From Ferroacidibacillus organovorans (GTDB lineage: Bacteria; Bacillota; Bacilli; Alicyclobacillales; SLC66): a stretch of DNA of 64,000 bases. The notes beneath the pieces are model-generated. The model searched no databases, was not told where the DNA came from, and saw nothing but the letters and a program-made list of their open reading frames with translations. The stretch spans positions 1 through 64,000 of the forward strand of contig NZ_LSUQ01000011.1 in NCBI RefSeq assembly GCF_001642725.1. Direction: 5' to 3'. Both the position numbers and the translations under genes were made by a program. Numbering within the stretch: position 1 is the stretch's first letter; the number at the start of each line of letters is the position of its first letter. Below are positions 33,482 to 41,799 of the stretch, piece after piece.

Positions 33482-33620
33482 GTGAGTCTCGCAAACTCAC
33501 AAGCCACCCAGTTAGCATGTTTGATTATCACTGAAAGCTTAGGTACACTATATATAGGTAAGTCGACTTCTCATCCTAACTTCGCGATGAATCGACCGCA
33601 GCAAAGGGGGGGATACGCAT

Positions 33621-33929
33621 ATGATGAAGACGATACAAACGGCGGAATACGATAAACTTGTCGGATCCTCCACAAAACCCGTCATTCTTGACTTCTCAGC
33701 GGATTGGTGACCGGGCTGTCGAATGTTGAGACCGGTGGTCTCTAAAATTGCAGGAGAAGATGCAACCGTTGACTATTACTATGTGGATGTCGATCAGTCG
33801 CCTGAACTCGCCATGAAATTTGGCGTTCAGAGCATCCCGACCATGATCTTGATTAAAGACGGAAAAGAAGCGGGTCGCAAGATCGGCGCCGCGCGGGAAG
33901 CAGACGTCCTGAAATTCGCTCACTCTTAA
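33621..33929 (+). CDS. thioredoxin with in-frame TGA at the catalytic position (predicted selenoprotein, UxxC, 102 aa)
   Basis: AAGGGGGG RBS. MMKTIQTAEYDKLVGSSTKPVILDFSADW-TGA(33708-33710)-PGCRMLRP..VDVD..FGVQSIPT..KDG. The ORF track shows only the part after the TGA. Confidence 0.9.
33728..33742 (+). promoter_or_regulatory. candidate bacterial SECIS hairpin
   Basis: GAGACC-GGU-GGUCUC stem-loop starting 17 nt after the UGA, with a G-rich apical loop. Confidence 0.65.
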
Positions 33930-33956
33930 TTCGCGTACACTCCGTAACCATTGCAA

Positions 33957-33995
33957 GGGCGCTCGCCTGGAGAAATCCGACGGGCGCTCTTTTTC
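33957..33995 (+). terminator. intrinsic terminator after thioredoxin
   Basis: AGGGCGCTCG...CGGGCGCTCT followed by a T-run. Confidence 0.65.
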
Positions 33996-34052
33996 ATCAT
34001 CGTGTAAGCTAGAGGTACGTTCATATTTACACGTTTGGGAGGTATTCAATCG

Positions 34053-35033
34053 ATGATTCGAGTGGCTATGATGAGCAAGTGGCACGTTCACGCGACCGAT
34101 TATCTACGCGAGGCGAACGCCCATCCTGAAGTTGAAGTCGCCGCCGTGTGGGACGAAGACCCTGCCCGCGGGCGCGCCTTTGCGCGCGAGATCGGTGTAC
34201 CTTTTTATGATTCTACGTCTTCACTCTACCGCGAGGCAGCTATTGACGGAGTCATCGTCGATACGCCGACAAACATGCACCCTCAGATCATCGCGGAAGC
34301 GATCCAGAATAAGAAGCACGTTTTTAGCGAGAAGGTGCTCGCGCTCAACGCGAGTGACGCGATTCATTTGACTGACCTTGCCCATACGTCAGGTGTTCAT
34401 CTGATGCTTTCCCTGTCTCGTCTCTGCGCGCCATACACCGTGTATGCCGAGTCCCTACTGCAGGAAGAAGCGCTCGGACGCGTCACGTCGTTTCGCTGCC
34501 GCGTCGCGCATGATGGCTCTGTGCCAACCGATGAACATGCACAAGGCTGGCTGCCCGCCCACTTCTACGATCCGATCACGTGTGGAGGCGGCGCACTGAT
34601 TGACCTTGGCGCACATCCCATCTATCTCTCAAACCGCCTCGCAGGTCCTGTACGCGCACTCTCGGCGCGTCTTGAAGCGACGCTTGGTCACGAGGTCGAT
34701 GACAATGCGACCGTAATGATTGAGTACGCGTCAGGCGCGCTCGGTCTCCTTGAGAGCAGCTTCGTCTCGGGAGGCAGCCCCTTTCTTATGGAAATTCACG
34801 GGACGAAGGGTTCCCTGCTGATCGAGAATGAGTCAGCGCGCGTGCGCTTTGGGCGTGGGCCACTTGTTGCAGTGAACCTTCCTCCTGAGCGACGCAGCGC
34901 GATGACGCAGTGGGTGGATGCGATTCTGCGCGACACGGCTCCCGAGATCACGCCAGACGACATGATCGAACTGACACGTGTCAATGAACTGGCGCAGCAA
35001 GCGCATCGCGAAGGACGGCGTGTCACACGCTAA
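34053..35033 (+). CDS. Gfo/Idh/MocA-family oxidoreductase
   Basis: KHVFSEK and GGGALIDLGAHPIY motifs. Confidence 0.9.
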   Translation: MIRVAMMSKWHVHATDYLREANAHPEVEVAAVWDEDPARGRAFAREIGVPFYDSTSSLYREAAIDGVIVDTPTNMHPQIIAEAIQNKKHVFSEKVLALNASDAIHLTDLAHTSGVHLMLSLSRLCAPYTVYAESLLQEEALGRVTSFRCRVAHDGSVPTDEHAQGWLPAHFYDPITCGGGALIDLGAHPIYLSNRLAGPVRALSARLEATLGHEVDDNATVMIEYASGALGLLESSFVSGGSPFLMEIHGTKGSLLIENESARVRFGRGPLVAVNLPPERRSAMTQWVDAILRDTAPEITPDDMIELTRVNELAQQAHREGRRVTR

Positions 35034-39317: not shown

Positions 39318-40472
39318 TTATCCGTGAACAGCGCAGCGGTTTGGACCAATCTCCATCTCACGCTGCTCATCTTCACCTGGCTGCAATTTGCCCATGTTTG
39401 TCAGCCGAATTTCTTGATAGGCATTCGGTTGCGGTGGAAGATTTTCCGTCACCAGTTTATGGAAAATTTTCTCATCCGACACGAGAAGTCCCGAGTTTGT
39501 CGCGTACAATTGTCCAAGATTGGCGCAGACGCATCCATTCTCATTCATTTCATCACCGTGTGCATAATGCGCCGGAAGCAACGTCAAGTTTGCAGATAGC
39601 CCTTGGTACGTTTCATAGAGGGATTTCCGCAAATCGGCTGCCCAATCACCCGCCGCACCCGCGAGATCCGGTCTGCCAATCGATTGGACAAACAGGATAT
39701 CCCCGGAGAGTAGATAAGCGTCGTCAACGATCAGCGATGTACTGCCGATCGTGTGTCCTGGCGAATAAAGTGCAGAAATTTTAACTTCTGTCAAACCGAC
39801 GGTGATGACCTCGCCATCTTCCAGCGGATGATAAGAAAATTGTGCATCCGTCGCATCTTTTGGAGGAAGCCAATACGTCGCGCCGAGTTTCTCAGCGAGC
39901 ACTCTGCCGCCAGAAATGTGATCCGCGTGCAAGTGAGTGTCGAGCGTATGCTTGATCGTGACGCCGAGTTCTTTTGCAAACGACTCATACACATCGGTCA
40001 TGCGTGCTGTGTCCACAATCGCCGCTTCCCCATCCGATACGATCATGTAAGAGAGGCAGCCTTTGCCAACGCGCACGAATTGGTACAAAGCGCCATTTTC
40101 CGCGAGATTCCCAACTTTTACGGGGCGCAGATACTCGCTCCACGTTTTCATACCGCCCGCGAGGTATGTGACATTGTCACGCCCTGCCTCAATAAGTTGT
40201 TCTGCCACAAATTGAGAAGAACCCTCTTTGGCACAAACGACGAGAACAGGTTGGTCGCTTGGCAGTTGCTCAAGCGCAGCCTCGACACCGTCGAGCAGAT
40301 CAAAATATGGAATGTTGACGCTCGTCACGGCTGGACCTTCAATCTTCCAATCCGCGAATGCATCTTCGTTGCGAACGTCCAGAATCCATAGCGGCTCTTT
40401 GCGAAGCACTTTTTCAAATACTTCAGCCGAGGTCTGTGTTGACGCGTTCGTCTCTACTGTCATTTCCGACAC
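39318..40472 (-). CDS. rhodanese-MBL fusion, persulfide dioxygenase-like (YrkH-like)
   Basis: N-terminal rhodanese ([18 protein letters not shown]) and MBL motifs THLHADH, PGHT, GRPDL, PAH. C-terminal GPNRCA. GTG start behind GGGGG. Confidence 0.88.
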
Positions 40473-40489
40473 ACTGTTCCCCCCTATCA

Positions 40490-40550
40490 TATACGGTATG
40501 GGGTATATATTAATCGGAAGGAGTCGTCGAGTCAATACCCTTAGGCGTAT
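40490..40550. promoter_or_regulatory. tandem CsoR/CstR-type operators
   Basis: TATACGGTATGGGGTATA (40490-40507) and ATACCCTTAGGCGTAT (40535-40550), with the same geometry as the site at 27676. Confidence 0.6.
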
Positions 40551-40552
40551 CT

Positions 40553-41799
40553 CTAAATCGATGCGCGATGCGGATTCATCGCCGTATCCTTCATCATAAC
40601 CAGTGCAAAACCGGTGACTAATGAGGTAAATGCCATGAAAGAACCTGCCCAAAATCCGATCGTTCGCGCCGGAACTACGACGAGCAAAAATCCGGTCGCC
40701 AGCATGGAAAGAGAAATCACGACACTCGAGATTGTCCCGAGCAGCGAAAAAATTCTCCCGTGAAACACAGTCGGCGCCTCTCTCATCAAAAGCGTGGTCG
40801 TCACGGCGTTGCCAATCCCTGCGCTCATCGTCGCAAAAGACAAAAAGAGGGCTGCTCCCCACAGCACAGGCGACAGACTAACCGCGACATGGCAAATTCC
40901 CTCGAAGAGATACGCTGCGGCCGTGATGATCCGAAGCCTCTTTACAAGGCGCGATGCGATGAACCCACTTGCCAAAAACCCTATACCGAGCGCGCCATAG
41001 AGAACTCCGACACCCCAGTTTCCACTGCGAAAACCTGATATCCGTAGACACTGAGAAGCGTATTGACGGCACCCCCGCCAATTGCCCAGAGAATCGCTTG
41101 CACGCTGACGAGTTGAATGAGCCTCGACTGACGAAAGACAAACCAAAACGAGTGCGAGGATGCTTGAGAATGGGTTCGCTGCCGTTTTTTCTCTAGCCCC
41201 TCAAAACTACCGCGACCACGGTTGGGTGAGCTTGGCAGGTTGATAGACCCGCAGATGAATCCTGATGCTAAAAACGAAACAGCGTTGATGGCAAACGCCG
41301 TGTCAAAACCGAAGCGCGCGCTGATGAGTCCGCCGAGTCCCGCACCGAACGCCATGACAAGGCCGCCGAGCGATTGTTCGAGCGCATTGGCGACTGCGAG
41401 ATGCTGCGGGTGTACCAGTTGTGGAATCACGGCGGTTCGCGCTGGAGAAAAAAGCGCCGAGAAGACGACGAGACCCGCGGTCGCCACATAGGCGATCCAG
41501 ACTTGTGACACAGAGTTTACAAGTAGCAAGGACAGCGCAATAAAAAAACGGGAAAAGTCTGCGAATACAAGGATCGTTTTACGATGCAACCGGTCAGCCA
41601 AAATTCCGCCAAGTGGTCCCATGACAAGGTATGGAAACGTGCGCACTGCCAAAGCAACGCCAACGGACAGACTCGATCCTGTAAGATGAAGGAGGAGGCT
41701 GAGAAGTGCCACACTGTTGAACCAGTCACCGATTCCGCTCAACAGACTCGCAAAAAGCAACCGCCGATATGCAGGCTCGGCGCGAAGGAGGTTCATCAT
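40553..41799 (-). pseudogene. MFS transporter (DHA3-like), frameshifted
   Basis: The N-terminal frame (GGILADRLHRK) switches to the C-terminal frame at about 41030. One extra T in GTTTTC restores YQVFRSGNWGVG. Confidence 0.8.

Follow-up and report, generated by a model that had tools for sequence, protein, structure and literature searches.

The window analysed here is the whole 64,000-nucleotide (64 kb) stretch of DNA from Ferroacidibacillus organovorans, a member of the Alicyclobacillaceae. It contains a small gene, here termed trx(U), whose reading frame opens with the ATG at 33621, runs for 102 sense codons and closes with the TAA at 33927-33929 (Table 1). The sole internal stop is a TGA at codon 30, in the context D-W-[TGA]-P-G-C-R. 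Read through and scored with C substituted for U, the product matches Pfam PF00085 with an E-value of 1.1e-23 and 83.7 bits (cut-off 23.5), with residues 3-99 covering positions 3-100 of the 103 in the profile. When the sequences before and after the TGA are scored separately, they fall on adjoining parts of that profile, the N-terminal one on positions 3-29 (E 0.0054; alone under the cut-off) and the C-terminal one on positions 33-100 (E 4.7e-13). A sequence-only reading of this DNA had proposed a full-length 102-codon thioredoxin frame interrupted by one TGA at codon 30, and frame inspection, the PF00085 match and the HMMER alignment all agree with it.

In HMMER alignments to solved thioredoxins the TGA falls on the first Cys of WCGPC, such that W29-U30-P31-G32-C33 and I72-P73-T74 of trx(U) correspond to WCGPC and IPT of the solved proteins. 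AlphaFold2, run on the family alignment, predicts the thioredoxin topology (beta-alpha-beta-alpha-beta-alpha-beta-beta-alpha, pLDDT 89.5), with the active site at the N-terminus of helix 2 and a helix at 31-46 that begins directly after U30, and the best Foldseek matches to this model are all thioredoxins, with TM values of 0.89-0.94. The score against the TrxA equivalog TIGR01068 is 91.4 bits, slightly below its cut-off of 96.8, and we therefore name the product a thioredoxin-family protein and not the housekeeping TrxA. No NCBIfam cut-off is reached by trx(U), and an antisense ORF lying over it (33699-34091, minus strand) has no Pfam match.

The same reading had assigned the gene a ribosome-binding site and a terminator. 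A Shine-Dalgarno-like sequence is indeed present upstream of the ATG. As for the terminator, folding gives a terminator-like stem-loop 3′ of trx(U) (centroid -21.6 kcal/mol, z -1.82) but a simple terminator and promoter scan found neither a terminator nor a plus-strand promoter at the gene. Elsewhere in the window lie genes of endospore formation, encoding GerA-family proteins, YtvI, a PdaB-like protein and RsfA. The MutY of the window shares 99% identity with its F. organovorans counterpart. The window also encodes, at 39318-40862 on the minus strand, a 514-aa protein with a rhodanese-like domain and a metallo-beta-lactamase-fold domain resembling hydroxyacylglutathione hydrolase; every NCBIfam match of this protein is far under its cut-off.

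Table 1. Coordinates of trx(U) and its signals in the window, and of the selenium island in relatives (coordinates prefixed L refer to loci from the scan of other Bacilli).
Feature	Position	Strand	Basis or remark
trx(U), thioredoxin gene, 102 codons plus stop TAA, UGA30 proposed Sec	33621..33929	+	
TGA, proposed Sec codon (U30), at the site of the nucleophilic Cys in WCxxC	33708..33710	+	
TGT, resolving Cys33 of the U-P-G-C centre	33717..33719	+	C33 column invariant in family
Putative bacterial SECIS-type hairpin, 6-bp stem GAGACC/GGUCUC, loop GGU, in codons 36-41 (L-R-P-V-V-S)	33728..33742	+	
Shine-Dalgarno-like AAGGGGGGG, 8 nt 5′ of ATG	33604..33612	+	sequence inspection
Terminator-like stem-loop (33955-33991) followed by T5 run	33955..33995	+	fold
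Selenium island around trx(U)	L010:10350-20253; L002:372-13490; L001:3938-9525; and 21 further loci		
Island SelD, itself a selenoprotein (S-K-G-G-U-G-C-K)	L020:14400-14705; L010:14700-15080; L001:5900-6200	-; -; +	
GT4 glycosyltransferase (adjoins selD); polysaccharide-deacetylase-family gene	L010:15154-16146; L010:10353-10967	-; -	

A scan using one genome per species returned 79 loci, among which the genome of the window itself is absent. The first 32 of these (L001-L032) are family members with 48-62% identity. Their hosts include Paenibacillus, Aneurinibacillus, Melghirimyces, Paludifilum, Marinithermofilum, Virgibacillus, Sediminibacillus, Halobacillus, Aquibacillus, Planococcus, Planomicrobium and an Alicyclobacillus MAG, amongst others, and several of the host genera are known as aerobes. 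The family thus spans the Alicyclobacillaceae, Paenibacillaceae, Thermoactinomycetaceae, Bacillaceae, Fictibacillaceae and Caryophanaceae. All 33 family genes (the window copy and the 32 Bacillales loci) carry TGA at the codon of the first active-site Cys, which rules out a TGA unique to one assembly, one of the outcomes that would have undone the sequence-only reading. The next eight loci (L033-L040) are ordinary thioredoxins with WCGPC. Set against six of these eight in a tree of 38 rows (one relative, L030, was excluded for its extra stop) the family forms a single clade with an SH-aLRT value of 99; the tree roughly tracks host families and the window copy lies near the base. The family active centre reads U-P-[G/S/A/M]-C, and the window copy retains all 21 residues that are invariant in the family. 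The gene of Marinithermofilum abyssi has TAG at the Trp codon that directly precedes the TGA (L030:10049-10054), with the SECIS core described below intact; either pseudogene formation or an error in sequencing may account for this.

Databases hold this family largely as fragments. A protein search gave 16 matches, 13 of which are calls of 68-69 aa that start at a Met five codons past the TGA; the other three are one 128-aa call with W at the TGA and two ordinary thioredoxins. The short calls include RefSeq entries named 'thioredoxin family protein' from Bacillus fonticola, Terrihalobacillus insolitus and Sediminibacillus massiliensis. The expectation that gene callers truncate trx(U) was therefore accurate. 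Many relatives have Q, F, Y or H in place of Met35, at which those calls start, while conservation holds for the residues that separate the TGA from codon 35, and therefore the short ORF cannot be the conserved product. Median pS and pN are 0.78 and 0.30 in codons 1-29 and 0.80 and 0.20 after the TGA. Purifying selection thus acts on both sides of the TGA, with synonymous sites near saturation. Two public calls carry W at the TGA (P0003, with ADWWPGC, and probably P0093, with ADPWSTC), presumably because the callers applied a TGA=Trp code to short contigs, and not as a matter of biology.

Moreover, UPGC had been singled out as an unusual active-site tetrad, and this description holds. In a profile search of 1.84 billion representatives multi-thioredoxin proteins dominated the highest ranks, and 14 single- or double-domain proteins out of the best 150 matches were examined. 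No Cys orthologue with CPGC was found among these 14 (of the best 150) or among the 16 matches of the protein search; the nearest Cys-containing proteins examined have CGPC, CMPC, CPPC or CAPC.

The hairpin that the sequence-only reading placed 17 nt downstream of the TGA is present exactly there, as GAGACC (33728-33733), GGT (33734-33736) and GGTCTC (33737-33742). The distance from the UGA to the GGU loop is 23 nt. The isolated hairpin has a folding energy of -8.2 kcal/mol, a value that 0 of 200 shuffles reach, while in a 50- or 71-nt context the fold does not surpass that of shuffles (z -0.44 and -0.29). Folding of the single sequence thus carries little weight, and it is conservation that makes the case. 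The published bSECIS model, as given in the legend to Fig. [quoted passage not shown] The window hairpin, with its 3-nt loop (G-G first), 6-bp stem, 23-nt spacing and -8.2 kcal/mol, fits these constraints. An Rfam gathering scan of the whole window returned no family, and an E-value scan of 33500-34050 gave seven matches, all far under gathering scores and none of them SECIS.

Every one of the 33 family members contains a single copy of the core G[AG]G[AG]CCGGTGGTCTC, always 17 nt 3′ of the TGA, and nowhere else in the 79 loci and the window; loci L041-L079 were scanned for this core alone, and it was absent. Across 31 sequences RNAalifold retains the 6-bp stem alone, with the loop and 3′ arm invariant and with stem pairs 2 and 4 varying solely between A-U and G-U; there is no compensatory double change at any base pair in these sequences. 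A lower stem seen in single folds of some relatives is not supported: 105-199 of 500 shuffles reach the observed pair counts. The codons beneath the hairpin tell more. P38, V39 and V40 are CCG, GTG and GTC in 30/30 genes, when all other degenerate codons conserved in at least 27 of the 30 rows use two to six synonymous codons, and pS is 0.18 in codons 36-41 compared with 0.80 in the remaining C-terminal part (Nei-Gojobori, 435 pairs). We regard this freezing of synonymous sites under the loop and 3′ arm as the decisive evidence, which shows a constraint at the level of the RNA. Taken together, the comparison with relatives that had been proposed as a check turned out in favour of the proposal, as both the TGA and the hairpin are conserved and purifying selection acts on either side of the TGA.

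Lastly, we considered the genes around trx(U). At least one of selA, selB, selC and selD lies within 10 kb of the gene in 24/32 relatives, and ARAGORN identifies tRNA-Sec in the flanks of 22/32 loci. The island comprises trx(U), a NodB-type deacetylase, a PhnC/PhnE/PhnD-like ABC transporter, SelD, a GT4 glycosyltransferase, tRNA-Sec, SelB and SelA. SelD, SelB and SelA of L010 and L020 exceed NCBIfam cut-offs; beyond these two representatives, island genes were assigned by BLAST clustering of neighbouring ORFs. The binding protein of the transporter also matches TIGR04553 ('putative selenate'), under its cut-off. Gene order differs between a Paenibacillus type and a Bacillaceae/Planococcus type, and therefore the linkage of trx(U) to sel genes is more than inherited synteny. 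Virgibacillus sp. DJP39 has two family copies on separate contigs, of which one (L019) lies in the island and the other (L017) has a short flank free of sel genes. The window copy resembles the eight of 32 relatives without nearby sel genes: the 64 kb hold 0 tRNAs, and no SelA, SelB or SelD was found among the 56 ORFs scanned. A search with the C-terminal half of the SelB of L001 gave no Ferroacidibacillus among the best 120 of 277 matches, an outcome that speaks neither for nor against SelB in this genome.

The SelD of the island, itself a selenoprotein with GGUGCK, has a hairpin of its own. This element, CGCAG-GUN-CUGCG, is conserved, forms 8 bp and lies ~27 nt past the TGA of selD, with a 3-nt loop that has G first, as in the trx element; a strict motif search recovers this SelD in 15 loci. 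The GT4 glycosyltransferase, found in 22/32 loci, reaches 305 bits against NF038229 (cut-off 400) and 89 bits against the model of the selenosugar synthase SenB, and the polysaccharide-deacetylase-family gene is found in 20/32. That the island holds a selenosugar-type pathway is a guess only.

We propose, with a probability of roughly 0.87, that the gene product is a thioredoxin of 102 residues with selenocysteine as the attacking cysteine, in the active site W-U-P-G-C; at the level of the family the case is made by the TGA in 33/33 genes, the hairpin frozen at synonymous sites and the sel linkage in 24/32 relatives, so that the selenocysteine thioredoxin put forward by the sequence-only reading is upheld there. 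On this model, the ribosome would reach UGA30, the hairpin would serve as a bacterial SECIS that tethers SelB-GTP-Sec-tRNA(Sec), and Sec would be inserted in place of termination. The product would then alternate between a selenolate/thiol form and a U30-C33 selenenylsulfide, as a classical thioredoxin does with its cysteines. For F. organovorans we infer the Sec insertion itself, the binding of SelB to the hairpin, the reductant and the substrates.

The alternative that survives best, at a low probability, is that the family is one of true selenoproteins but that the Sec machinery has been lost here, in which case translation would stop at UGA30 and the gene would be decaying. The 64 kb contain neither sel genes nor tRNA-Sec, the window copy is detached from the selenium island that 24/32 relatives have, and another member, L030, already has the TAG. 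Against this, the window copy keeps every invariant residue, the exact SECIS core, its start codon, the RBS and the terminator-like hairpin. Moreover, seven other relatives without nearby sel genes have an intact trx(U), although in two of these seven the downstream flank is short, and one is the extra copy of a genome whose other trx(U) lies in the island.

Two further readings were weighed. Under the first, which we consider very improbable, UGA30 is read through without Sec, for example by near-cognate insertion of Trp or Cys, to give a protein with W-W/C-P-G-C. The two database calls with W (P0003 and probably P0093) can be cited for it, but the codon is that of the catalytic Cys, at which Trp would kill the enzyme; TGC, TGT and TGG never replace TGA in the 33 genes; and neither the linkage to Sec genes nor a hairpin conserved at synonymous sites is accounted for. 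The second reading, less probable still, takes the real products to be the pieces, a 29-aa peptide and/or a 68-aa protein from Met35. It draws on the 13/16 database matches called in this form. Yet Met35 is not conserved, whereas P-x-C-R between the TGA and codon 35 is; a single thioredoxin profile takes up both pieces side by side, and the structural model joins them in one domain; and the C-terminal piece would be left without an active site. The view that an ordinary thioredoxin gene was misread in sequencing or assembly, or has acquired a nonsense mutation in this strain, has nothing to commend it beyond the in-frame stop itself and is refuted by the same TGA in 32 independent genomes and by a protein cluster identical to the C-terminal piece on nine contigs.

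Returning to the selenocysteine thioredoxin, the protein may have a role in feeding selenium to SelD. According to PMC8538045, the reduction of selenite that supplies selenoprotein synthesis begins with a step performed by the thioredoxin system. Because selenite assimilation is thioredoxin-initiated in this way, and because trx(U) is linked to sel and transporter genes, such a role is plausible, although only as an inference. A stronger version, which we regard as doubtful, is that Trx(U) is no general disulfide reductase but a payload or helper dedicated to a compact island for selenium utilisation across Bacilli. If this were true, Trx(U) would act as a reductant or carrier of selenium for SelD, and in such genomes Sec decoding as a whole could be kept up for the sake of one small protein; the trx(U) of Ferroacidibacillus would then have separated from the island.

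In public annotation, RefSeq included, the thioredoxin genes of this clade in Bacilli stand as fragments of 68 aa or are missing, and no NCBIfam model names the clade. An HMM combined with the 15-nt SECIS core would repair its gene calls. Judged from its sequence, trx(U) would imply the use of selenocysteine in an acidophilic member of the Alicyclobacillaceae. With its core in 33 genes, the hairpin would moreover offer a very clean natural SECIS for the study of SelB recognition in Gram-positives, and the linkage of trx(U), selD(U), the transporter and the SenB-like glycosyltransferase is a testable lead on how selenium is delivered to SelD. Many Sec-utilising Bacillales have 0 known selenoproteins in Table S2 of Peng et al. 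2016, among them 17 Paenibacillus, 2 Virgibacillus, Oceanobacillus iheyensis and others, and small miscalled genes like trx(U) are worth seeking in these organisms. The same table gives Planococcus antarcticus two selenoproteins without naming them, which would fit SelD(U) and Trx(U).

In the parts of the literature consulted, we found no description of the trx(U) clade in Bacilli; supplementary tables and databases may include it. The texts on BSepDB and deep-Sep contained no mention of the clade that we could find, and in the part of BSepDB Table S1 consulted an F. organovorans assembly is given as 'examined' only. We found no literature linking Acidibacillus with selenocysteine, and none on selenium among the titles and opening abstract lines for F. 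organovorans. The text of a 2026 review mentions thioredoxin (Trx) and has no term beginning Bacill- or Firmicutes.

Compared with classical TrxA (E. coli 2trx and relatives, WCGPC), trx(U) has the same fold (TM 0.89-0.94) at ~30% identity and a similar length, and shares the Trp before the active site and the cis-Pro loop I-P-T. It differs in having U for the attacking Cys and P-G as the middle dipeptide; across the clade the dipeptide is P-[G/S/A/M], in contrast to the G-P of classical thioredoxins. As in the bSECIS consensus of PMC13188914, the hairpin lies in the coding region after the UGA and has a small G-G loop, and with its 3-nt loop and 6-bp stem it sits at the small end of that model. 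A thioredoxin-like fold and a UxxC-type centre are also shared with TsoB, PDO_seleno_TRX, SaoT and the HUIPC family. Against the first two of these models trx(U) scores 28.7 of 805 bits (NF045694) and 23.1 of 185 bits (TIGR02187), and the models for SaoT (NF040730) and the HUIPC family (NF047660) gave no match at E-values up to 0.01.

The closest parallel is the known Sec-thioredoxin. According to the tables of PMC13188914 and PMC9312934, both citing Kim et al. 2015, a Sec-thioredoxin (Trx, PF00085, UxxC) has been experimentally characterised. Such proteins were predicted in 2006 in Geobacter, Anaeromyxobacter, Carboxydothermus and Treponema denticola (PMC1794560), and Table S3 of Peng et al. 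2016 gives Sec-thioredoxin in 19 organisms. Like these, trx(U) is a single-domain protein with Sec in place of the N-terminal Cys of CxxC, giving UxxC, and with a hairpin just 3′ of the UGA. Unlike these, its clade is hosted by Bacilli and usually lies inside a sel gene island. The clade shares one SECIS core, and we set it beside the characterised Sec-thioredoxin by UxxC motif class only. Sec-thioredoxin as a class is already established, and the trx(U) clade of Bacilli is a further member of it.
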